The notes under the pieces are model-generated. The model saw only the letters and a program-made list of their open reading frames with translations, was not told the origin of the DNA and did no database searches. Below are positions 4,593-20,222 of a stretch of DNA of 55,160 nucleotides, piece by piece. Source of the stretch: an uncultured Candidatus Saccharibacteria bacterium. GTDB lineage: Bacteria > Patescibacteriota > Dojkabacteria > SC72. Numbering within the stretch: the stretch's first letter is position 1; each line of letters opens with the position of its first letter. Both the position numbers and the translations under genes were made by a program. Where the stretch lies: positions 1 to 55,160 of the forward strand of contig CAYVBS010000002.1 of the NCBI GenBank assembly GCA_964449955.1. Reading direction: 5' to 3'.

Positions 4593-5924
4593 TTACTTTT
4601 TAGCTAACAACTTCCCCAACCTATTTGGTGTATTAGGAAGATATGTAGTTTCTAATATACTTCCAAACTCTAACATCTTCATTAGTAATCTCTCTGTACC
4701 AATTGCAAAACCACCGTGTGGTGGACAACCATATTCAAAATACTCAAAGTACTCTTTAAGAGAATCTTCTGAAATACCTCTCTGTGCTGCATTAGCTTTT
4801 AGTTCATCTAATCTGTGCTCTCTCTGTGCACCAGTGGTAACTTCTAAACCTTTCCAGAACAGATCAAAACCTAGTGCTAACTTAGGATCATCAGTATTCT
4901 TCATATGGTAGAATGCACGTCTTTCGTGAGGATAGTCGATCATAAAGAGGAATTCACATCCAGTTTCTTCTTCCATGATCTCCCCTATTGCCTTCTCTTC
5001 TACTGGAGAAAAGTCTCCTACATCTTTACTTGGTATACCTGCTTTAGCAAGTTTCTCTTTTGCCTCTTTTACAGTTAGGTATGGGAAGTCTCCATCTGGT
5101 ACTTTAATATCTATACCAAATACTCTTTTAATATCCTCTCCATATCTCTCTTTCACTTGGGTTAACATGTGTTTAAGCATCTCCTGTTCAAAGTGAGTAA
5201 CATCTCTGTATGAATCTATATACCCTATCTCTACATCAAAGCTGGTGTATTCTGTTAAGTGTCTGGTTGTAAAAGATTTCTCTGCTCTAAATACTGGACC
5301 CATATTAAATACTTTTTCTAGGTCTGCAGCTATACCCATCTGTTTATGGAATTGAGGTGATTGAGCTAAGTATGCCTTCCTATCAAAGTACTTCACTTCA
5401 AATACATTCGCACCACCCTCACTTGCAGCACTGATAACTCTTGGTCCCTGTATTTCTCTAAATCCATTCTGTAAGCAGTAATCTCTAAGTGCTTGTCCCA
5501 TTAGCGTAGCTACAGCCATCATTAATTGATTCTTCTCACTTCTAAGATCTATCCATCTGTAATCTAATCTTCTATCCAAAGCAGATACGTTATCTGTATG
5601 TTCATCTTCTATGACAATGGGTAGTGGTGCTTTAGCTAATGAATCTATCTTTAAATTCTTTATACCTACTTCGTATCCACTTGCTACCTGTTTTGCTTCT
5701 TTTACCTCCCCTACTATATCTACTACAGATTCTAGGGTTAATGTCTTAGCTGTTTTGAATACATCTTCATCACCGTGCCATGCTACTGTTTGTACTTTAC
5801 CACTTCTATCTCTTAGTACTATGAAAATGATTTTACCCTGGTCTCTAATGGTATCTACTCTCCCTCGTACTCTTACTTCTTTACCTATATGACTAGAGAG
5901 CTCTGTTATTTGTACTCTTTCCAT
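4593..5924 (-). CDS. aspS: aspartyl-tRNA synthetase, short archaeal/eukaryal type (class IIb)
   Basis: 443 aa. N-terminal OB-fold anticodon-binding domain, LAQSPQFHKQM (AspRS QSPQ motif), FRAE motif 2, GGFAIGTERLLM motif 3. The length fits the archaeal-type enzyme rather than the ~590-aa bacterial type. Confidence 0.9.
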   Translation of the reverse strand: MERVQITELSSHIGKEVRVRGRVDTIRDQGKIIFIVLRDRSGKVQTVAWHGDEDVFKTAKTLTLESVVDIVGEVKEAKQVASGYEVGIKNLKIDSLAKAPLPIVIEDEHTDNVSALDRRLDYRWIDLRSEKNQLMMAVATLMGQALRDYCLQNGFREIQGPRVISAASEGGANVFEVKYFDRKAYLAQSPQFHKQMGIAADLEKVFNMGPVFRAEKSFTTRHLTEYTSFDVEIGYIDSYRDVTHFEQEMLKHMLTQVKERYGEDIKRVFGIDIKVPDGDFPYLTVKEAKEKLAKAGIPSKDVGDFSPVEEKAIGEIMEEETGCEFLFMIDYPHERRAFYHMKNTDDPKLALGFDLFWKGLEVTTGAQREHRLDELKANAAQRGISEDSLKEYFEYFEYGCPPHGGFAIGTERLLMKMLEFGSILETTYLPNTPNRLGKLLAKK

Positions 5925-6000
5925 TTGTTCAAAACAACAAGTTAATATCGCCTATTATACACTTCTTTTTGAGTGTAGGAAAACAGTAGCTAAGTGAAAG

Positions 6001-6591: not shown

Positions 6592-6776
6592 ATTTAAAGA
6601 TTACAAATGTATCCTATAAAATGATAATGGTGAGGGTAAACTAAAGCAAGAAGTGGGTATTTGTACTAACTTCTAGTGAAAGATATATGGTTGTTATCTT
6701 GATGTTGACTGGGGTTACAAAGACTACTCCTGCGCAAGATATTTTGTCCATATGATTATTATACAGGAGAATTCTA

Positions 6777-6812
6777 ATGGTGGGCGATATTGAAGGGTGT
6801 AGAATATTTTTA
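6777..6812 (-). repeat. att-like site S1: tRNA-Val 3'-end core + decayed second arm
   Basis: ATGGTGGGCGATA (6777-6789) matches 20145-20157 at the tRNA-Val 3' end 13/13. The following arm, TTGAAGGGTGTAGAAT, only loosely resembles TTAAAGTGCATGGAAC. Confidence 0.7.
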
Positions 6813-6818
6813 TCTCTA

Positions 6819-7610
6819 TTACAGTCCAAATATTGATATCGTATTTTTGTAGAAAACATCGTCCTTCTGATTGTCAGAAATATCTAAACTCTTTATTAAT
6901 GATATATGATCTTGAATATTGCACATACCGTAATCACTACCATACAGAACTTTTTTATTGTATCTCTTAATGAGAGCCTCTAAGGAGTATTTAATTCTCC
7001 CTTCTCCTGTTTTTATAATAACTTCTTTATCTGCTAATGCAGATGTATCATAATTTATATTGGGAATTTCTTTTGTAATATTGAGACAATATTCTACCTT
7101 TGGCCAAAATAAATGACTGATAACAATCTTCAAAGATGGAAAATGACTAGCAACTTCAGCAATATATTTAGGATCGTTATATTTTGCACACTTGCTATCC
7201 TCACTATTTTCTCCTGTATGTATTACAAGAGGTTTGTCATATTTAATACATAATTTGAAAAAAGGTTCCAATCTTTTATCATGGGGATAATGATTATCAT
7301 GTCCTGGAAAGATCTTGAGGCCTACTATTTGATTAGATAAAAAACAATTATTCAATTCAATTAATTTACTTTTTAGATCATCTTCTAAGATATTTATAGT
7401 TCCTAACACATGAATGTTTGGTACATCGGAAAAAAGGTCTATGCACTGTTTAAGATTGCCAATCGGAGAGACTTCTACATTATCAGGTATTACAATCCCT
7501 AGTTCTATAGAGTTCTTTTTTAATTCTAACAATAGTTCCTCTCTCTGTTGTTTAAGAGATGATAGGTATGGTCTAACAGGTAAGTGTAAATGAGAATCTA
7601 TAATTTTCAT
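6819..7610 (-). CDS. metal-dependent amidohydrolase (amidohydrolase_2 / TIM-barrel hydrolase family)
   Basis: 263 aa. MKIIDSHLHL (HxH), ...VIHTGE..., ...ISHLFWP..., ...YGSDYG... are spaced as the metal ligands of this fold. Confidence 0.65.
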   Translation of the reverse strand: MKIIDSHLHLPVRPYLSSLKQQREELLLELKKNSIELGIVIPDNVEVSPIGNLKQCIDLFSDVPNIHVLGTINILEDDLKSKLIELNNCFLSNQIVGLKIFPGHDNHYPHDKRLEPFFKLCIKYDKPLVIHTGENSEDSKCAKYNDPKYIAEVASHFPSLKIVISHLFWPKVEYCLNITKEIPNINYDTSALADKEVIIKTGEGRIKYSLEALIKRYNKKVLYGSDYGMCNIQDHISLIKSLDISDNQKDDVFYKNTISIFGL

Positions 7611-7634
7611 AGATCATTATAGCAAGGTTTAGAG

Positions 7635-7669
7635 ATGGTGGGCGATATTGAAATATATGGCAAGAACAC
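7635..7669 (-). repeat. att-like site S2: tRNA-Val 3'-end core + decayed second arm
   Basis: ATGGTGGGCGATA at 7635-7647 (13/13). The second arm, TTGAAATATATGGCAAGAACACTTA, is related to the consensus with insertions. Confidence 0.7.
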
Positions 7670-8800
7670 TTATAGATTATCTTTAATCCATTGGTCGAGA
7701 GGATCTGTACTGTTCTTGTAATCCTCAATGGTAATTGGAATCTTTATATCTGGTTCAATCACATCAATATTCTGTCCAGGTAGAAGTTCAAAATACTTAT
7801 AAGAGCATGCAACTTTTATTCCTGAATTGGGAAGAACAATTTCTTTATGATCCCCAAATCTATTTGGTTTTTGTCCTGCATTTTCTCCTACCAAGGTTGC
7901 TCCTTTATTTTGTTTTAGGTATAAGAGGTGATGCATTGTTGCAGAGAAGGTTTTTCTTGCTATAGCTACATAGATAGGTTTGTTGTCTGGAAATTTTTCA
8001 AAAAGGTCTGCCATAATCTCCGTAGAACCACCATCATTCAGTCTGAAATCAACGATAATGTTTCTTGCATTCTTAGCACTCTCTAACAAATGAGCTTTGA
8101 ATTCTTCCAAGTACTCTTCCGTAAAGCCATCATTTGTACAATCGTTATATTGAAATATTAAATTACCATCTTCCATTCGGAATTGGTAAAGTTTGTTCCC
8201 CTCATATGTTGTACTCTCCTCTCTCTGTTGCTTACTCCACACTAATGGGTTCATTCGATAAAAAGTATCTCTATTCTCGCTTACCTTTAACTTTATATCT
8301 CCTTGATCTGTTTCAATTTGAATAGTTTCGGTACTGCTAAAACCATAATATCTAAGAATTTTATTAGATTCTAAAAACCAAGCTAGATCTCGTGCTAATA
8401 CTTCGGAGTTTTCTTTAGAAGAAAGATTTGCTAGTTTAGGTAGAACATTGCTAATTGTTACACCGTTGATAGCTAATAGCTGTCTGCCAAGTAAGTCAGA
8501 ATCTTTGGTTTCAGCACCAGTTATATAGAGGTTTCCTCCTATATCTAAGTACCTTACAGGGAAGAGTTCTTCTTCTCTAAATTCTTCTGACACACGTGTA
8601 TGGGCATCTCTTAAAAGGGCTAGAGATTCCTGCACTGCTATTTGAAAGAACTCCGGTTTTGCTTCAGTTGCTTTTTGTAGGGAATCCGTGAGTGTTTGTT
8701 TCTCAACATTCCTGTATGGGTCAAAGTGTATTTCTTCTAATTGCTGTTGTAGGTATTCAACATCTTTTTGTTCGGGTGTTTTTTCTAGCTCCGATTCCAT
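7670..8800 (-). CDS. S41-family (C-terminal processing / tricorn-core-like) serine peptidase homologue
   Basis: 376 aa. IIVDFRLNDGGS (cf. DLRnNgGG), KTFSATMH (cf. TaSAaE, catalytic Ser), LVGENAGQKPN (cf. GE.T.GK, catalytic Lys). Confidence 0.6.
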   Translation of the reverse strand: MESELEKTPEQKDVEYLQQQLEEIHFDPYRNVEKQTLTDSLQKATEAKPEFFQIAVQESLALLRDAHTRVSEEFREEELFPVRYLDIGGNLYITGAETKDSDLLGRQLLAINGVTISNVLPKLANLSSKENSEVLARDLAWFLESNKILRYYGFSSTETIQIETDQGDIKLKVSENRDTFYRMNPLVWSKQQREESTTYEGNKLYQFRMEDGNLIFQYNDCTNDGFTEEYLEEFKAHLLESAKNARNIIVDFRLNDGGSTEIMADLFEKFPDNKPIYVAIARKTFSATMHHLLYLKQNKGATLVGENAGQKPNRFGDHKEIVLPNSGIKVACSYKYFELLPGQNIDVIEPDIKIPITIEDYKNSTDPLDQWIKDNL

Positions 8801-8825
8801 GGCAGCATTATACAGGAAATTTGTA

Positions 8826-8860
8826 ATGGTGGGCGATATTAAAGTGCATGGAACTTAAAA
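8826..8860 (-). repeat. att-like site S3 (best-preserved copy)
   Basis: ATGGTGGGCGATA TTAAAGTGCATGGAACTTAAAA, preceded by ATTATACAGGAAATTTGTA (8807-8825), which is shared with S5. Confidence 0.8.
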
Positions 8861-8884
8861 GTGGAATTGTATTGTATACAACTT

Positions 8885-9001
8885 TGTAGGTCGTCGGACT
8901 TGCACCGCTAGATTGCTAAACGCCCCACCTTATCTTCGCTTTTCACAGCGTATAAGCAGGAACTTGCAATGTGAGCTTCTACCAACTCACAACCGACCTA
9001 C
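8885..9001 (-). ncRNA. 117-nt tRNA-like structured RNA candidate (not a canonical tRNA)
   Basis: On the minus strand, 5' GTAGGTCG pairs perfectly with 3' CGACCTAC. It has a D-loop-like GTGAGTTGGTAGAAGCTCAC, a T-arm-like CGGTGCAAGTCCG in the correct 3' register (7-nt loop + 5 + 7 + 1), and a long irregular hairpin (ATTGC...CGCT GTGAAA AGCG...GCAAT) where the anticodon and variable arms would be. It is visibly more GC-rich than its surroundings and starts 6 nt after the NUDIX stop. Confidence 0.3.
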
Positions 9002-9007
9002 TATTGA

Positions 9008-9445
9008 TTATAAATTTTCTTGTTTGAAAATTCTATTAACCCTCTTGTATATTAGATCTTCCTTATCTTCAAATACATCTTCTAATTCTAGTAGTGATAC
9101 CCATTGGTAATTCACATGTTCATCTGAAAGTATTACTTCTGGAGTATTATCTAAAGATACCAAGTATGTAGTTTCTGTTACATTCTTAATATCTCCATTC
9201 TCTTTTGTAAAGCTATAACTTTCTGAATCCACGAGTTTAAGATCTTCATGAGATATATCTATACCTGATTCTTCTTTTACTTCTCTTATTACACTTGTTT
9301 CCATATCTTCTCCTTCATCTATTCCTCCAGATGGTAATTCCCAGAATCCTGGAAGTGAGTCGTCTTTAGGAGCCCTTTGTATTAGTAAGAACTTCTTCTC
9401 TGGATTAAGTATTAAACTGGCTATGTTTTCTTTTGTTATTATCAT
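9008..9445 (-). CDS. NUDIX hydrolase
   Basis: 145 aa with a complete Nudix box: GGGIDEGEDMETSVIREVKEESGI. Confidence 0.85.
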   Translation of the reverse strand: MIITKENIASLILNPEKKFLLIQRAPKDDSLPGFWELPSGGIDEGEDMETSVIREVKEESGIDISHEDLKLVDSESYSFTKENGDIKNVTETTYLVSLDNTPEVILSDEHVNYQWVSLLELEDVFEDKEDLIYKRVNRIFKQENL

Positions 9446-9465
9446 GAGAAGTATTGTATCAGAAA

Positions 9466-9500
9466 ATGGTGGGATGTGTTGAATAGCTTGGAACTTAAAA
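9466..9500 (-). repeat. att-like site S4 (diverged core)
   Basis: ATGGTGGGATGTG (9/13 to the core) followed by TTGAATAGCTTGGAACTTAAAA. Confidence 0.6.
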
Positions 9501-9525
9501 AACTTTTAACTTTATTCATTAATAT

Positions 9526-9996
9526 CTAATCAGGAATTTCCTCAAAGATATCTTTGGTATGGAATTTTACACTTTTTCCATTGTTTAATTGCAAGGTTAT
9601 CTTTGGAAATTCATCTCTATCTTTGGCATATAGATCCCATTTAGCATTATTATGTATCTTTAAAAATTCATCAAAAGAAACAGGTATAACAAATTCTAAA
9701 TGGTCTAATTCAGATTCACATATTTGCCTTTCTTTAGGTTCAACTAATTCAAATCCTAGTATTCTATAACTTTCATATTCATATGGGTTTGAGAATCTAA
9801 AAATTGCAACTCTTCTACCACTCACAATATTCTCAGATATTAATTGACCAAGAGTAAGAGATTGTTCCTTAAGATCCTCATAATCTTGTGCAGAGGATGT
9901 TTGATAACCGAAGTGATCTAATTCCAATTTAGACACATCAAAAGGTATCTGTTCTATTAGCGAAGATGCGAAACTGTCAAAGTTGTCTGTAACCAT
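9526..9996 (-). CDS. YecM-like / VOC-superfamily protein
   Basis: 156 aa. ELDHFGYQTSS...GRRVAIFRF...ELVEPKE...ELDHLEFVIP...VKFHTKDI follows the pattern I recall for YecM (paired DH motifs, GR.I, final .FH). Confidence 0.45.
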   Translation of the reverse strand: MVTDNFDSFASSLIEQIPFDVSKLELDHFGYQTSSAQDYEDLKEQSLTLGQLISENIVSGRRVAIFRFSNPYEYESYRILGFELVEPKERQICESELDHLEFVIPVSFDEFLKIHNNAKWDLYAKDRDEFPKITLQLNNGKSVKFHTKDIFEEIPD

Positions 9997-10022
9997 ATGC
10001 TTATTATATCAGGAAATTTGTA

Positions 10023-10056
10023 ATGGTGGGCGATACTAAAAGGCATGGAACTTAAA
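10023..10056 (-). repeat. att-like site S5
   Basis: ATGGTGGGCGATA CTAAAAGGCATGGAACTTAAA, preceded by ATTATATCAGGAAATTTGTA (10003-10022). Confidence 0.8.
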
Positions 10057-10082
10057 CAAGTTTTAAGTATGACAGTTTATAT

Positions 10083-11216
10083 TTAGATGATTGGATTATC
10101 TTTAACATCATTAATTATGGTGATATTACCACCCGCTTCAACTTTTATGAAAAAGTCTTTCTTCATATCTGTTAGATATCTCTCTGGGTATACGTTTATA
10201 ATTGTTGTATATTCTATCTTTCCTAAATGACTCACGATATCTTGTATTACAGTATCCTTGTTATCTGTAACGTATTTCTGGAATTTATCATGTATAGGCA
10301 CACCTATCCATCCCACAGGGTAATCTTTTGTTTTTAGAGACAATTCTCTTAGTGATTTCATAAAACTTTTTTCATTTCGAAATATCTTACTCCAATCTAT
10401 GCCTTCGCCGGTAAAATAAGCGTCATTTTCACTCTGGACATTGAAGTACTTGTTACTACTTAATTTATAACTCATCTCTAATCCTGAGCAACCATGTTGA
10501 CCATCTTTATATTCAGTTATATATACGCCTCTGTCTATTGTATTCAACACCTGTACTTCAAAATCATCCTTTTTTACTAAAATAGTGCCATCTTGTAAGC
10601 TCTCGTTCCAGACTCTCTCTAAGGACCTATTTAATTCACTCCGAATATAACTAAGAACCTTTTTAATGAATTGGTTATTCAAGTAATCTCCTTCTATCCA
10701 GCATCCCATACTTTCACGAAGGTAAGTGTTTTCTTTAATGTAAGCTGTTCCCAGCAAAGAGTCTTCAATTAAATTATAATTAAAATCTAAACCAAATTTT
10801 GTCTTTACAGAGATTATCTTATCTTCACAAAGCCAATCCCCAAACTCACTTACTTTCTGGATATCCTTAAACCCCATCTTCTCAAGTGCTATCATAGCTC
10901 TAAACTCTTCCATGAAAGAAGCTAATTTTCTTTGTGCTTCAAAAACCGAACAATTTGATATAATTAATTCATCAAAAAGTTTGGGATATTTTTCAACATA
11001 TTTTGAAAAGGTCCTCTCTTGTTGATTTAGATACTTTTGGCTTTCATACATACGAAAGAACCAGCCGACTTCTAGTGGATTTTCAATAGTCCCACTGAAA
11101 AGCCATTTTTCTAAGAAACTACTTAAGTATGGAGCTTCTTTGAACTTATTCTTGTAGAAGTTCCAATCTGTTAATTTATTCCCCGGTACAAAGTGTTCTT
11201 CCTTAAATAAACGCAT
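10083..11216 (-). CDS. hypothetical protein
   Basis: 377-aa ORF; no motif recognised. It starts 15 nt downstream of the stop of the preceding (5'-proximal on the minus strand) 209-aa ORF, so they probably form an operon. Confidence 0.5.
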   Translation of the reverse strand: MRLFKEEHFVPGNKLTDWNFYKNKFKEAPYLSSFLEKWLFSGTIENPLEVGWFFRMYESQKYLNQQERTFSKYVEKYPKLFDELIISNCSVFEAQRKLASFMEEFRAMIALEKMGFKDIQKVSEFGDWLCEDKIISVKTKFGLDFNYNLIEDSLLGTAYIKENTYLRESMGCWIEGDYLNNQFIKKVLSYIRSELNRSLERVWNESLQDGTILVKKDDFEVQVLNTIDRGVYITEYKDGQHGCSGLEMSYKLSSNKYFNVQSENDAYFTGEGIDWSKIFRNEKSFMKSLRELSLKTKDYPVGWIGVPIHDKFQKYVTDNKDTVIQDIVSHLGKIEYTTIINVYPERYLTDMKKDFFIKVEAGGNITIINDVKDNPII

Positions 11217-11861: not shown

Positions 11862-12016
11862 TTTATACGTGAAGACATAAATTATTTATAATTATATCAG
11901 TAAATTCTGATGTTTCATTAGTATAAACATACATAATATATAACGTTATTAGATATGCAGATTTGTTTGGAATCTCATAAACTCTTTTGGTCTAGTCATT
12001 AAGAGGTTAAAAAGAC

Positions 12017-13097: not shown

Positions 13098-15308
13098 TTA
13101 TTTTGCACTATTAATCATCTGATAGCCCTCTCTAAAAAGAGAGTTGTAACTATCTAGTTTATCTTTGAGGTACAATTTTAATTGATCCTCTTTCTCACCA
13201 TCGAGACGAATCTTTTTTGCGTTGAGTTTATACCAACTCTTAAGTCGATTCTTTGATCTTACTGCACATACTCCAATATCTGTCGCAGGCACTATTATCT
13301 CAAGTACTAGAGGGCTGTCTTTGAATTTCTGAAGAATTACATCGTCAAGAGAGTAGCCTTTTACTAATATGTGATCATGAAGTTTACTTTGAAAGAATTG
13401 TTGAAGTTTGTCAAAGTTCCCATCAAAATAATCCTCATATTCTGTATCTATGCCTGTAATCATTTTGTTATCTCGGATCCCAACATAGATGTGGCCCTCA
13501 ACACCCTTGTTTATATACGCACAAATTGTACCGAGTATGGCGTCTTCGAAAAGGTTGGGATCAGCATTGTCTTCTTTAATGTTATAGGCAAATGTCTCTT
13601 TAAATTCATGGGTCAAATCTTCTTCAATTTTTGAAATAAAACTGTCACTTGCAAGTTCTTTGAATGATTCATTTAATTCCCCAGCTTTTAGAATTATATC
13701 TTCAGCAATCTCTCGTCTCCCACTTTCGGAGGAATCCTTTTTCTCCTCCACCAATCTATCTATGCCATAACTTAGTAACGCTTCTGATATGGTGTCTGTA
13801 AAATTTATAAGATCACCTTTCAGCTCACTTTGTGATAGGTGTTTCAGATCTCTTCTTTTAATAAGCAAGTATTGATAGAACTTATTAAGTATGTAGCTCA
13901 AAATTGCGACTCCATTGTTACTGCAAATGAATCCTTTATCTCCCATTTCCCAGTCTTCTTTGATCTTTTCTGTCTCAATGAGGGATCCAAAATATATATC
14001 TAAGAATTTGTAATACTTATCGATGTCTTTATCTAAAAGTAGTTTGTAGACCTTAGTAACTTTTGATTTAAAGGAAACTCCAATGTTGTTAATTTTCAGA
14101 CTATAACTCTTTGCATCTTTTAGAGAGATACTTGGAATGTATATTTGATCCTTGAAAAATACTGACTTTCTGTTCAAGTCTTTAACTAACCGAGCAAGTT
14201 TGTACTTGTCATCTGTTTCAGGATAGATATCTGTGTAGAGATCCCAAAGATAATCTGGTTGTATACTTTTTTGATTTTGGTTGATCTCAACAAATAAATT
14301 TGCTTGCTCAGCTTGTGATAACTGTGAAAAAGCTATTACATTAAGCATATGATCGTGAGCAATCTGATCCAGACCAGAATAGCCAAATAATCTGTGCTGA
14401 CCATCTATGATCCAGGCATAACCATATTCTTCAGGAAACTTAAGCCATCCGGGAGTAACATTCGCTGCTCTTCTTTCTGCATTTCGCTGTTCAAGTGATG
14501 AAAACTCAAGCTTTTTATCAAAGTTGATAAGTATTGGTGTCGGAAATGAATTGCCTTCAATACTAAGAAACTTTTGAATAGCTTTGATTTTGGGAATATC
14601 AATCATTCTCTGGTAAGTAACATCGCTCCCATCAGTATTTATAGAATTTTCAAAATTTCGCCTATGTACATATGCAATTTTGAGAAGATCTTCTGGGCTC
14701 ATTTGAAAATTGTAACAATCAAAGCCTTTATAGTTGCCTTTAGTTACAAGACAATTATAACTTTTATTTCCACGCCCCCATTTTTTTCCTTTTTGAGCAA
14801 GTAAATCTGAGAAGATTATGTGTGAAGACCGATCTTTAAGCTTTTCAGCTAATGATAAGTATTGAGAAAGAATTTTACTATTCCAAAGATCAATTTTATC
14901 TTCTTTGGCTTTTTTAAAGTTTGTTAAGCTTAGGTCGTTATCTGAGTAAATAAGTAAAAATAAACAAGGTTTGTCACTTTTCGTAAATTTTCTCAAGTAG
15001 TTTTGAATCTCACTTTTATTTGCAGCAATTTTATCAATCTCTTCAGTTACGATATGAGAATTACCACTTTTACACTCAACTACAAATTGTACATCTTCAA
15101 ACTCTGCATATACATCAATTTCATAATTCGTTCTAGCTAATTTTACAATGAAAGGTTGCGAACTTATGTTTAGAGGATTCATAAGTAAAAGCATGTATCT
15201 TACTTTTGCCTCTAATCGTTCACTTACCTTCTCAAGCGTTTCATAATTTTTGTTTGTCTGGACTAACTCCTCGTACTCTGCAGTTCCGATCTGTGTTAAT
15301 TCCTTCAT
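13098..15308 (-). CDS. three-domain fusion: PD-(D/E)xK nuclease-like + DGQHR (DndB/ParB-like) + AlbA_2/Schlafen-like DNA-binding domain
   Basis: The ORF track extends to the TTG at 15347; the ATG at 15308 (MKELTQIG) is preferred. N-terminus: EIDVYAEFEDVQFVVECKSG (D...E-x-K). Middle: AWIIDGQHRLFGY and LFVEINQNQKSI (DGQHR domain signature). C-terminus: THEFKETF...ICAYINKGVEGHIYVGIRDNKMITGID (AlbA_2/Schlafen pattern). Confidence 0.6.
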   Translation of the reverse strand: MKELTQIGTAEYEELVQTNKNYETLEKVSERLEAKVRYMLLLMNPLNISSQPFIVKLARTNYEIDVYAEFEDVQFVVECKSGNSHIVTEEIDKIAANKSEIQNYLRKFTKSDKPCLFLLIYSDNDLSLTNFKKAKEDKIDLWNSKILSQYLSLAEKLKDRSSHIIFSDLLAQKGKKWGRGNKSYNCLVTKGNYKGFDCYNFQMSPEDLLKIAYVHRRNFENSINTDGSDVTYQRMIDIPKIKAIQKFLSIEGNSFPTPILINFDKKLEFSSLEQRNAERRAANVTPGWLKFPEEYGYAWIIDGQHRLFGYSGLDQIAHDHMLNVIAFSQLSQAEQANLFVEINQNQKSIQPDYLWDLYTDIYPETDDKYKLARLVKDLNRKSVFFKDQIYIPSISLKDAKSYSLKINNIGVSFKSKVTKVYKLLLDKDIDKYYKFLDIYFGSLIETEKIKEDWEMGDKGFICSNNGVAILSYILNKFYQYLLIKRRDLKHLSQSELKGDLINFTDTISEALLSYGIDRLVEEKKDSSESGRREIAEDIILKAGELNESFKELASDSFISKIEEDLTHEFKETFAYNIKEDNADPNLFEDAILGTICAYINKGVEGHIYVGIRDNKMITGIDTEYEDYFDGNFDKLQQFFQSKLHDHILVKGYSLDDVILQKFKDSPLVLEIIVPATDIGVCAVRSKNRLKSWYKLNAKKIRLDGEKEDQLKLYLKDKLDSYNSLFREGYQMINSAK

Positions 15309-15488
15309 CGATTTTTTTATAAATTTAGTAAAGATAAATATTAGCAAGGATCGCCATTGTCAACTCTTACCATCAAGTTTCTTAGGATAGTTATATTTTT
15401 TTAATCCCCAACGCTCAAAAATTTTACAGTCCGATAAAGATTATTAAAATTTAAACAATTCCTATCATTTCGAGTAGTCAAAGTCTTA

Positions 15489-18381: not shown

Positions 18382-20175
18382 ATGGATGAGCAAAATCGAA
18401 AGAAAAAAGTAGCACTATACATAAGGGTTTCGACTGATGAACAAGCTGATATGTATGGAGTGGATTTGCAAAGAAGTGCATTGATGGGGCTAATTGCTTC
18501 TAAAGGGCATAATCTTGAATTTGCTGGAGATCAGTATGTGTATATTGATGAAGGTGTTAGTGGAACAGTAGTACCAGCAGAAAGGCCAGCATTTAGAAGA
18601 TTAATGGAAGACATTTCAAGGTCCTCTACTCGACCATTTGATGTTGTGGCTGTATACAAAATTGATAGATTTGCCAGGAGACTTAAGGTCTTGTTGGATA
18701 TATTAGATATTTTTGATAAAGGCGAGGAGAAAATCGAGTTTCTTTCTGCAAATGAAAGTATAGATACATCTACTCCTTTTGGAAGAGCTATGCTTGGGAT
18801 AATTGGAGTAATTGCAGAACTTGAATTAGAGAATATCAAGGAAAGAACTAGTGATGGTCGGCAATCATCTGCTGAGAAAGGTACATATATGAATATTCCC
18901 CCACTTGGATATGTTAAGGGAATAGATGGGAAGATAGTTGTTCAAGAAGAAGAGAGCAAAGTTGTACAACTAATATTCAACATGTATGTTCTTGAAGGAA
19001 GAGGTGTTCAGGATATTGCAAGGTATTTAAGAAACCATAAAGTAAAATCACCTCAGACATTTAGATACGAGCATAACAAAGAAAACAAGGGTAACAGAAA
19101 GTCGAGTAAAGGTGGACCATATTATTGGGATTCTTCCGCAGTAAAGGCGGTGTTACAAAATGAACTGTATATTGGGATTCAGTATTACAATAAGACTAAA
19201 AATGGCAAGAAACTACAAAAAGATCAGTGGGGAGTATATTACCATGATCAAGAATTAATCGATAAAGAGACATTTGAAAAAGCTCAGAAATATATACTAG
19301 CTGGAAGGAAAAGTTATCATGCTAGACAAAGTGATAACAGATTATACTTACTGCAAGGACTATTAAAATGTGCCAACTGTTTTGATCCAACCCTTAACGC
19401 TGAACCATATGTATGGAATGGAAGTCCCCATGTTGTCAAAAGTACAGGGAACAAGTCTTATTACTATTCTTGTAGTTCTAAACATAGCGAAAAGAAGTCG
19501 CGAAGAAAAATTGATTGTAAAGCCCTACCATTACCTGCAGAGCCTTTAGAAAAGCATGTGATTGATTTTATAAGAACTTTACTTAACAATCCTCGGGCTG
19601 TATTTAAATATCAACAAGAGCTTCAATCAAAGAAGGTGGATGTCAGAAATAAAAGAGACAAGCTCAAGATGATAAAAGAGTTAATTAACACTAATGAGAG
19701 TGCTAAGAGACGAGTACAGATAATGTATAGGGATGGTGATATATCAAGAGAACAAAAAGACAAAGAATTGAAGGAGTTAAAAGCCCAGTTGGATAGGAAC
19801 ATGAGGGAGAAGGAAGCCTTAGATACTGAATTAGCAATATACACTAATAAAGAGGAGTATTTTAAAGCTTTTGAGTTGTTCCAACAGAAATATGAAGAAG
19901 CTATGAATGAGTATATGCAAGATGGAAATAGTGAATATCTGTACAAACTAATTCATATGATGATTGAAGAAGTTATCGTATTCTCTCGACCCAAAAGAAA
20001 AACAGACAGTATTTCTGGACCCAAGAAAGAAGGGCAAATGGTTCCATATAAATTGAATATTGTTCTTAAGATACCTTCAGAAATGCTTAGCGACTTGCTT
20101 TTCTCGCTTGCTCCTGAAGCTAAGTTACAGGCAGAAAAAGATGGATGGTGGGCGATACGGGACTCGAACCTGTGA
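18382..20175 (+). CDS. large serine recombinase
   Basis: 597 aa. Resolvase catalytic domain VALYIRVSTDEQ (Ser nucleophile) ...YKIDRFARR..., a recombinase domain, a Cys-rich zinc-ribbon region (CANCFDP...YYYSCSS), and a long coiled coil. The last 30 nt overlap the tRNA-Val gene on the opposite strand. Confidence 0.9.
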   Translation: MDEQNRKKKVALYIRVSTDEQADMYGVDLQRSALMGLIASKGHNLEFAGDQYVYIDEGVSGTVVPAERPAFRRLMEDISRSSTRPFDVVAVYKIDRFARRLKVLLDILDIFDKGEEKIEFLSANESIDTSTPFGRAMLGIIGVIAELELENIKERTSDGRQSSAEKGTYMNIPPLGYVKGIDGKIVVQEEESKVVQLIFNMYVLEGRGVQDIARYLRNHKVKSPQTFRYEHNKENKGNRKSSKGGPYYWDSSAVKAVLQNELYIGIQYYNKTKNGKKLQKDQWGVYYHDQELIDKETFEKAQKYILAGRKSYHARQSDNRLYLLQGLLKCANCFDPTLNAEPYVWNGSPHVVKSTGNKSYYYSCSSKHSEKKSRRKIDCKALPLPAEPLEKHVIDFIRTLLNNPRAVFKYQQELQSKKVDVRNKRDKLKMIKELINTNESAKRRVQIMYRDGDISREQKDKELKELKAQLDRNMREKEALDTELAIYTNKEEYFKAFELFQQKYEEAMNEYMQDGNSEYLYKLIHMMIEEVIVFSRPKRKTDSISGPKKEGQMVPYKLNIVLKIPSEMLSDLLFSLAPEAKLQAEKDGWWAIRDSNL

Positions 20176-20222
20176 CCTCCACAATGTCAATGTGATGCTC
20201 TAACCAGCTGAGCTAATCGCCC
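20146..20222 (-). tRNA. tRNA-Val (anticodon GAC), CCA encoded
   Basis: Hand fold of the minus strand: GGGCGAT TA GCTC AGCTGGTTA GAGC A TCACA TTGACAT TGTGG AGGTC ACAGG TTCGAGT CCCGT ATCGCCC A CCA. The cloverleaf is regular apart from one A-C mismatch in the T stem. Confidence 0.85.

Follow-up and report, generated by a model that had tools for sequence, protein, structure and literature searches.

The Saccharibacteria genome analysed here is small (682 kb, ~0.7 Mb) and AT-rich (37% GC), and in the window, by which we mean the whole 55,160-nt stretch of DNA under study, it carries a series of small co-oriented cassettes stacked behind a tRNA-Val gene (Table 1). The cassettes occupy ~3.3 kb of the minus strand. 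The 3′ end of the tRNA gene is repeated at every cassette junction, and it overlaps the 3′ end of a gene for a large serine recombinase whose Pfam domains are matched with E-values of 7.5e-33 (Resolvase), 1.2e-20 (Recombinase) and 2.1e-5 (zinc ribbon); the genome's two Phage_integrase-family matches are on different contigs (C5 and C11). Sites S1, S2, S3 and S5 share a 13-nt core, TATCGCCCACCAT, with tRNA-Val, forming direct repeats that bound the units, and the cores of S4 (ending at 9466) and S6 have decayed. A junction site consists of a conserved left arm of ~20 nt, which is common to sites across genera, the 13-nt tRNA-derived core and a right arm that is both short and variable. The units measure 0.5–1.2 kb and mostly hold one gene and no recombinase. 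No Rfam family reached its gathering score anywhere in the array, and a tRNA-like piece at 8885–9001 gave Rfam matches at chance level only.

Table 1. Features of the tRNA-Val cassette array, in order from the tRNA gene.
Feature	Position	Strand	Remarks
tRNA-Val(GAC)	20146..20222	-	3′ end TATCGCCCACCA; recurs at every cassette junction
Large serine recombinase, 597 aa	18382..20175	+	Pfam Resolvase, Recombinase and Zn_ribbon_recom
Right-arm-like stretch without core	11891..11907	-	AATTTACTGATATAAT; exception in the array
S5 core	10023..10035	-	TATCGCCCACCAT, 13-nt copy of the tRNA-Val 3′ end
S5 extended -10 box	10003..10011	-	TGATATAAT; gap AAGCAT (6 nt); ATG at 9996
YecM-like cassette gene, 156 aa	9526..9996	-	PF06185, E 2e-19, from residue 5
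S4 extended -10 box	9453..9461	-	TGATACAAT; gap ACTTCTC (7 nt); ATG at 9445
NUDIX hydrolase cassette gene, 145 aa	9008..9445	-	PF00293, E 5e-20, from residue 8
S3 core	8826..8838	-	Matches TATCGCCCACCAT
S3 box	8807..8814	-	TGTATAAT; gap GCTGCC (6 nt); ATG at 8800
Peptidase S41-like cassette gene, 376 aa	7670..8800	-	PF03572, E 5e-8
S2 core	7635..7647	-	Matches TATCGCCCACCAT
S2 extended -10 box	7616..7624	-	TGCTATAAT; gap GATCT (5 nt); ATG at 7610
Amidohydrolase_2/TatD-like cassette gene, 263 aa	6819..7610	-	PF04909, E 1e-19; TatD match from residue 4
S1 core	6777..6789	-	Matches TATCGCCCACCAT
S1 box	6758..6765	-	TGTATAAT; gap AATCAT (6 nt); ATG at 6751
S1 ORF, 36 aa	6641..6751	-	Last part of a 72-aa frame whose beginning lies within the preceding gene
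Degenerate box	6598..6605	-	TGTAATCT; 6 nt before ATG 6591 of a 196-aa ORF

At each of S1 to S5 a TG-associated TATAAT or TACAAT hexamer lies 5–7 nt before an ATG. The sequences quoted for these boxes and start codons in the first-pass annotation are all in place, with spacings of 6, 5, 6, 7 and 6 nt from S1 to S5, and its reading of the minus strand was borne out: the TG stands one base before the hexamer, as in an extended -10 element, in S5, S2 and S4, and abuts the hexamer in S3 and S1, which are without the canonical TGn register. None of the five gaps between box and ATG contains a Shine-Dalgarno core (GGAG, GAGG or AGGA), again as claimed. If the spacer is taken as 17 nt, the hexamer at -35 is CGCCCA, which lies inside the GC-rich, tRNA-derived core and matches TTGACA at two of six positions, and to judge from the sequence no -35 element is possible at the cassette sites. 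The degenerate box ahead of the 196-aa ORF, which is preceded by a decayed core, CCCTCACCATT, is a loose TAnnnT match only. One place in the array departs from the pattern: the coreless right-arm-like stretch has no in-frame ATG at 5–8 nt, the GTG of a 209-aa ORF being 29 nt away.

In a genome of 37% GC, matches of this kind might be chance products of AT-rich intergenic DNA. Over the whole window the 8 occurrences of TATAAT-N5-7-ATG do not differ significantly from the 4.6 expected, and a two-hexamer promoter scan, which returned fewer promoters than shuffled sequence (21 against 27.8) and picked up S4 as the only cassette site of the array, is not discriminating in such DNA. Against chance, 4 of the 8 exact matches cluster within the 3.3-kb array, all of them on a single strand and coinciding with ORF starts, where ~0.14 would be expected; together with the sharp spacing peak and the recurrence of the layout in relatives and orthologs described below, this makes a chance origin highly improbable.

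The start codons themselves are well defined for the four cassettes with a recognisable gene. A check for true starts further downstream, a possibility raised in the first-pass annotation, upheld the original assignments, in that the ATG of S2, S3, S4 and S5 is in each case the sole in-frame start, the next possible one lying at codon 21 or later and within the Pfam domain, and an in-frame stop is found 6–63 nt upstream (6 nt for S2). S1 is different: its promoter-like box is followed by no convincing gene, and it is probably an orphaned cassette head. The idea that the 36-aa ORF might be left over from a known cassette gene was rejected, no homolog being present among the loci compared.

A box at this distance from an ATG is common in the genome at large. 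Among 600 ORF-based gene starts, taken by a first-ATG rule so that the percentages are approximate, 71 (~12%) have TAnAAT 5–8 nt before the first ATG, and 67 of these lie outside the array. The spacing peaks sharply at 6 nt (4.3% of gene starts against 0.0–0.2% of internal ATGs), and the looser TAnnnT precedes ~31% of gene starts against a background of 11%. The box is found before 19% of divergent genes and before 31% of genes that follow gaps of 25–59 nt, as compared with 4% of operon-internal genes, and the 67 promoters outside the array often carry TG at -15/-14 (24, or 36%), TG abutting the hexamer (12) or T at -17 (64%). Because the box is frequent before divergent and short-gap genes, rare within operons and marked by this TG/T-17 signature, we infer that it acts as a promoter element and not as a ribosome-binding site. 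Shine-Dalgarno motifs occur at only ~6% of gene starts, and many leadered genes have a second, non-Shine-Dalgarno start signal, TAAWTT at 13–15 nt. Loss of ribosomal protein S1 was discarded as the cause of the scant Shine-Dalgarno use, since an S1-like protein is present in the genome.

The same spacing peak was obtained from an analysis of ORF starts on 400 kb each of G001, a member of the same family with no att sites, and G057, a member of the same class. A count of TATAAT-N6-ATG over 61 relatives, made irrespective of ORF context, was uninformative, the reversed-pattern control being equally frequent. The first-pass annotation had taken the box spacing for a feature of the cassettes and had named beforehand an organism-wide spacing as the result that would speak against this; such a spacing is largely what was found, in this genome and in relatives that include one without sites, and it is best regarded as a trait of the lineage. 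The predicted start design at the cassettes would accordingly be the ordinary one of the lineage, found at between a tenth and a third of all genes, and nothing special to the cassettes.

Box-bearing junctions nevertheless recur in other genera. When the box was called blind to the ATG in relatives, 18 of the 27 junctions having an ORF showed a spacing of 5–8 nt; about a third of junction ORFs had longer leaders (13–45 nt), and many junctions had no co-oriented ORF. Of the 61 relatives, 7 have the recombinase and 15 have the sites, with only partial overlap. Three YecM orthologs in three genera, among them proteins of 156 aa each in G009 and G005, have the same start methionine behind TG(n)TATAAT and unrelated spacers, and the YecM and S41 cassettes of G005 and G009 have different neighbours, an indirect hint that units may be excised and integrated by the recombinase. 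The S41-like ortholog of G005, 61% identical, keeps TGATATAAT-N6-ATG intact behind a decayed core.

These comparisons bear on the possibility that the TG-TATAAT boxes are the right half-site of the att site, conserved for recombination and not for transcription. Serine-recombinase half-sites extend ~20–25 bp from the core, which would about reach the box, and a semi-conserved A(A/T)TTTC(C/T)TG stretch that is not seen in promoters genome-wide joins the arm to the box, with C at -16 in 62% of 24 cassettes against 19% of the 67 other promoters. The distance from core to box, however, varies from 8 to 36 nt (mode 14; 8 nt to the hexamer in S4), whereas that from box to ATG stays at 5–8 nt, even where boxes were called irrespective of the ATG. 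The box persists behind the decayed core of the G005 ortholog, box and spacing are likewise found ahead of 67 unrelated genes in the rest of the genome, and the right arm of the recombinase-bearing unit beside the tRNA gene is without TATAAT, all of which makes a purely recombinational role quite unlikely. Since its register is kept with the ATG and not with the core, the putative promoter box is to be seen as abutting the recombination arm and not as a fixed part of it, contrary to what had first been proposed.

A second alternative is that the array is transcribed from upstream, in the manner of an integron, as one or a few long operon-like messages on which the boxes are of minor importance and translation initiates internally. 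All cassettes are co-oriented; a terminator scan of the cassette strand found no intrinsic terminators between them; and the six junction regions, folded with RNA parameters, behave like shuffled sequence (z -0.6 to +0.8), with no stable hairpins. Because terminators are absent, read-through transcripts are also likely. As the sole mode of expression, however, long transcripts would leave the cassette ATGs with neither of the two signals of leadered genes, Shine-Dalgarno or TAAWTT at 13–15 nt, and they do not account for a box at 5 of 5 cassette sites, where the base rate for promoter-proximal genes is ~16%, or for its retention in orthologs. We regard this reading as rather unlikely.

We therefore favour, as the likely explanation, that the boxes are the ordinary housekeeping -10 elements of this lineage, sigma-70-type and often TG-extended, positioned for leaderless mRNAs. 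The spacing would place the transcription start at the A of the ATG or beside it, and directly after the right arm of each cassette there would be a 15–17-nt module for the start of transcription and translation alike, so that a gene could be expressed from any place in the array. Each cassette probably gives rise to a leaderless message of its own. From sequence features we infer that the boxes are active promoters, that transcripts begin at the AUG and that the cassettes are mobile. Of the original proposal of self-promoted, leaderless cassettes, the -10 box at the expected distance and its recurrence in other genera and in orthologs hold up, and the suggestion that this is specific to cassettes does not. 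The cassettes stand out in that nearly all have the module, in that it is packed against the junction and in that an invariant core fills its -35 position.

The closest known counterpart of the start signal itself is that of the group C genomes defined with GeneMarkS-2 (Actinobacteria and Deinococcus-Thermus), in which TANNNT lies 6–8 nt before the start of operon-first genes that have no Shine-Dalgarno sequence and begin with AUG, 25–50% of operons being leaderless (PMC6028130). S1 to S5 share with these genomes the Pribnow-type box and its spacing, the AUG without Shine-Dalgarno and, genome-wide, a position-specific and promoter-proximal box, here before ~12% (strict) or ~31% (loose) of genes. 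They differ in belonging to Saccharibacteria with an AT-rich genome of 0.7 Mb, in a box that is often TG-extended with a weak -35, and in the non-Shine-Dalgarno TAAWTT signal that serves many leadered genes.

As a putative mobile array the locus invites comparison with integrons, and the first-pass annotation had set it apart from them on the ground that integron cassettes are promoterless. This contrast was overdrawn. Dependence on Pc is indeed the default for integron cassettes, as a tendency and not an absolute rule, but own promoters are documented for cmlA, for toxin-antitoxin cassettes and for many cassettes of large chromosomal integrons, in at least one of which most cassettes are reportedly transcribed from their own promoters (PMC8876359). 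Such cassettes resemble those described here in being single-gene and co-oriented, with position-independent expression (predicted in our case). The known integron cassette promoters lie in leaders with Shine-Dalgarno sequences, that of cmlA1 145 bp upstream (PMC8876359), whereas here the candidate promoter is fused to the start codon. Integrons also use a tyrosine recombinase on folded attC hairpins, in contrast to the large serine recombinase and non-folding tRNA 3′-end copies of this array; an adjacent IntI-type recombinase with attI, folding attC sites and promoterless cassettes are all lacking, each cassette having its -10 box, and an attC-like hairpin or terminator at the cassette ends is ruled out because the junctions do not fold.

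In SCCmec elements the Ccr large serine recombinases integrate at the 3′ end of rlmH/orfX. The present array has recombinase domains encoded at the target gene, direct repeats that copy its 3′ end and tandem accretion in common with them, but its units are single-gene and of 0.5–1.2 kb, its target is a tRNA gene, and we know of no SCC counterpart to the junction expression module. Islands inserted at tRNA genes by tyrosine integrases likewise leave tRNA 3′-end copies that mark successive insertions downstream of the tRNA; they typically have an integrase and many genes apiece, unlike the mostly one-gene units without recombinase seen here, in which a left arm of ~20 nt is conserved across genera. 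Within the literature searched, nothing on Saccharibacteria dealt with leaderless starts, mapped promoters or cassette arrays associated with serine recombinases, and no published account of start signals like these was found for the phylum.

Tentatively, and with somewhat more doubt than conviction, we suggest that the 15–17-nt TG-TATAAT-N5-7-ATG welded to the junction may be the smallest possible expression signal of mobile single-gene cassettes, initiating transcription and at the same time supplying the 5′-terminal AUG that translation needs. Any cassette captured at the tRNA gene would then be expressed immediately, whatever its position, and the array would be the equivalent of an integron with autonomous promoters, its one-gene cassettes viable thanks to leaderless translation. 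With its cassette-specific part weaker than first proposed, the finding is also less surprising. If the boxes fire, this would explain how such tiny cassettes can each function as an independent expression unit in an integron-like array associated with a serine recombinase, and expression within this array of an ultra-small episymbiont need not depend on the distance from a common promoter. More broadly, the genome-wide start signals suggest that in Saccharibacteria leaderless starts are used extensively and Shine-Dalgarno sequences hardly at all, which would bear on gene calling and start-site annotation across the Candidate Phyla Radiation and on how expression constructs are designed as genetic work on Saccharibacteria gets under way.

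The strings reported in the first-pass annotation ahead of the ATGs at S1 to S5, the five junction sites heading the array cassettes, are all present on the minus strand (see table). For S2 to S5 the ATG is the sole usable start: an in-frame stop precedes it by 6-63 nt, no further in-frame start codon occurs before codon 21, and the Pfam domains set in at residues 4-8. Across the 55-kb window, exact TATAAT-N5-7-ATG arrangements number eight, compared with an expectation of 4.6, and four of the eight fall on a single strand of the 3.3-kb array, all at ORF starts, where by our own calculation ~0.14 would be expected. With the strings in place, the starts unique and the arrangement in excess within the array, the original observation is confirmed. 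A further right-arm-like box, at 11891-11907, has no start at the correct distance downstream.

Genes, cassette heads and other elements of the window (the single genes of the first four rows belong to the array stretch 6600-10100)
Feature	Coordinates	Strand	Head	Remark
YecM-like protein gene	9526-9996	minus	S5: TGATATAAT-AAGCAT-ATG	convincing single gene
NUDIX hydrolase gene	9008-9445	minus	S4: TGATACAAT-ACTTCTC-ATG	convincing single gene
S41-like peptidase gene	7670-8800	minus	S3: TGTATAAT-GCTGCC-ATG	convincing single gene
Amidohydrolase gene	6819-7610	minus	S2: TGCTATAAT-GATCT-ATG	convincing single gene
36-aa ORF	6641-6751	minus	S1: TGTATAAT-AATCAT-ATG	S1 heads no more than this short ORF
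Large serine recombinase, 597 aa	18382-20175			Resolvase, Recombinase and zinc-ribbon domains; overlaps tRNA end
tRNA-Val(GAC) gene	20146-20222			3' end is the core
749-aa protein	13098-15347	minus		on recombinase-bearing unit
tRNA-like element	8885-9001	minus		between NUDIX stop codon and S3 left arm
Class II aminoacyl-tRNA synthetase gene	4593-5924

The arrangement recurs in related genomes. When the best -10-like hexamer within 50 nt after the core was called with the ATG ignored, in the window and 20 loci from relatives, the box-to-ATG spacing was 5-8 nt at 18 of 27 ORF-bearing junctions (mode 6), and roughly one in three ORFs behind junctions of relatives had a longer leader; in the set checked by hand, TG was present in 19 of 24 cassette heads. 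The YecM cassettes of the window's genome (G000) and of two relatives, G009 and G005, each encode exactly 156 aa from an identical start Met behind the heads TGATATAAT-aagcat, TGATATAAT-tatgta and TTGTATAAT-gtcat, respectively, so that the box and its distance are kept and the spacer is free. At the level of sequence comparison, such orthologous cassettes confirm both the start and the signal.

The box had been described as part of the att-site arm. Each junction comprises a conserved left arm, TTAAGTTCCATGCnnTTTAAT, then the core and then a variable right arm continuing into the -10 box; the junction repeats have a 13-nt core in common, TATCGCCCACCAT, which the tRNA-Val(GAC) gene carries as its 3' end, and a site at ~12040 keeps the left arm with its core broken after ATCGCC. 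The box lies anywhere between 8 and 36 nt from the core (mode 14), whereas its distance from the ATG is tight; the register of the box follows the gene, not the crossover region. The box also persists after decay of the core, as in the S41 cassette of G005 (protein 61% identical), which carries TGATATAAT-N6-ATG behind a core reduced to ATTGTCCATCA, and the recombinase unit's own right arm beside the tRNA is without TATAAT. On these three points the idea of a box embedded in the arm is not supported. The stretch A(A/T)TTTC(C/T)TG 5' of the box is nevertheless common to cassettes with unrelated genes and is atypical of other promoters in this genome (C at -16 in 62% of cassettes versus 19%), so that right arm and promoter are contiguous and may share a few bases. 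The box thus belongs to the att arm only loosely.

Nor is the layout peculiar to cassettes. Gene starts in the 682-kb genome (36.6% GC) were set by a simple ORF rule: 620 ORFs were used, non-overlapping and no shorter than 100 codons, and their first ATGs gave 600 starts. The strict box TAnAAT peaks sharply at a spacing of 6 nt from these ATGs (4.3% versus 0.0-0.2% at internal in-frame ATGs) and lies at 5-8 nt in 71 genes, 67 of them outside the array, and the loose form TAnnnT occupies the same interval at ~31% of starts against a background of 11%. An equivalent peak is found in 400 kb of G001, a genome of the same family with zero junction sites, and in 400 kb of G057, of the same class, with a mode of 5 nt. 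The -10/ATG spacing is thus largely an organism-wide trait, one of the outcomes that the first-pass annotation had named as counting against its reading.

The strongest argument at present for the boxes being functional is this same genome-wide signal. Among the 67 non-cassette boxes TG stands at -15/-14 in 36% and directly adjacent in 18%, T occupies -17 in 64%, and the -35 element is faint. A strict box precedes 19% of genes in divergent orientation, 31% of those whose upstream gap measures 25-59 nt, and only 4% of those less than 25 nt behind a co-directional neighbour. In this the signal resembles a promoter, not a ribosome-binding site. A Shine-Dalgarno motif occurs at only ~6% of starts, although CCUCC is kept in the 16S rRNA 3' end (contig G000:C5). 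The pattern matches the definition of GeneMarkS-2 group C, leaderless transcription with a Pribnow box ~10 nt from the start (PMC6028130), so the way genes start here belongs to this known leaderless class. E. coli K-12 and B. subtilis 168 support low but measurable translation of leaderless AUG mRNAs. Our literature search found no published account of leaderless starts in this lineage.

A contrast had also been drawn with integron cassettes as promoterless. Integron cassettes with their own promoters are known, and their frequent occurrence is reported for at least one large chromosomal integron (PMC8876359), so the distinction is one of degree and not categorical. The array differs from integrons in other respects: a serine recombinase adjoins it, the tyrosine recombinases of the genome lying on other contigs, and folding of its junction regions does not surpass that of shuffled sequence (z -0.6 to +0.8), so that the sites, unlike attC, are not hairpins. 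On recombinase and site structure the array falls outside the integron family. Mechanistically it comes closest to SCC-type composite islands and to tandem tRNA islands.

Searching relatives with a 33-nt query made of left arm and core, at most 3 mismatches being allowed, located junction sites in 15 of 61 genomes, where as many as 9 copies follow one another at intervals of 0.5-1.4 kb. The recombinase is present in 7 of the 61, a set that coincides only in part with the first: G000, G016 and G032 alone have both, and nearly complete genomes such as G005 and G009 carry 4-site arrays with no recombinase match. At ~6095-6127 of L001, a locus of another relative (G015:C30), TCCATCTTTTTTAGCCTGTAACTTAG, which in the window is the tRNA-adjacent right arm of the recombinase-bearing unit, stands behind the left arm and core of a cassette and not behind a tRNA; the recombinase unit thus seems to be itself a cassette within arrays. 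In several relatives (loci L004, L014, L015, L018 and L020) the same left arm and core lie behind tRNA genes whose T-arm is unlike that of the window's tRNA-Val and which have the 3' end (A/G)TCG(C/T)CCACCA in common with it.

Several other elements of the window deserve mention. The GC-rich tRNA-like element (~117 nt) adopts a predicted cloverleaf-like fold closed by an 8-bp helix (-43.6 kcal/mol, z -3.8; none of 200 shuffles did as well) and is unrecognised by ARAGORN and Rfam. In the leader of the aminoacyl-tRNA synthetase gene, the minus strand at 5942-5961 reads TGTATAAT-A-GGCGATATTAA, a -10 box and then, in reverse complement, the left-arm end and half the core (TTAATATCGCC); by our own arithmetic this 11-mer match has a chance of ~4e-4 (~900 nt, both strands), and the array's terminal junction may have left it as an inverted remnant. 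The 749-aa protein has a C-terminal Schlafen/AlbA_2 domain (E 6.5e-10) and is possibly a defence-type gene product.

A separate motif, TAAWTT, precedes ~22% of starts in this genome. As TAA[ACT][AT]T it lies 13-15 nt upstream of ~22% of first ATGs versus 0.1-0.4% of internal ATGs, for example as TAACTT at 5939-5944 on the minus strand, 14 nt before the ATG at 5924. It is just as common before operon-internal genes (42 of 170) and therefore looks like a non-Shine-Dalgarno translation signal, not a promoter; it is found in G001 as well and is weaker in G057.

What sets the cassettes apart, besides the recurrence in relatives described above, is the regularity of the arrangement, with a strict box at 5-7 nt in all five cassette sites versus ~16% of promoter-proximal genes, and its packing. 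Where the right arm has its modal length of 14 nt, the invariant GC-rich core (CGCCCA) occupies the -35 position, so the promoter region to about -36 is remade identically at each junction, whatever the upstream neighbour. We found no intrinsic terminators between cassettes, and transcripts therefore probably extend into the next cassette. In such read-through RNA the downstream cassette ATGs would have neither a Shine-Dalgarno sequence nor TAAWTT, which makes a 5'-terminal AUG supplied by the cassette's own promoter the most plausible route of translation. That the cassettes would be self-promoted and leaderless is, on grounds of sequence statistics and comparison, well supported.
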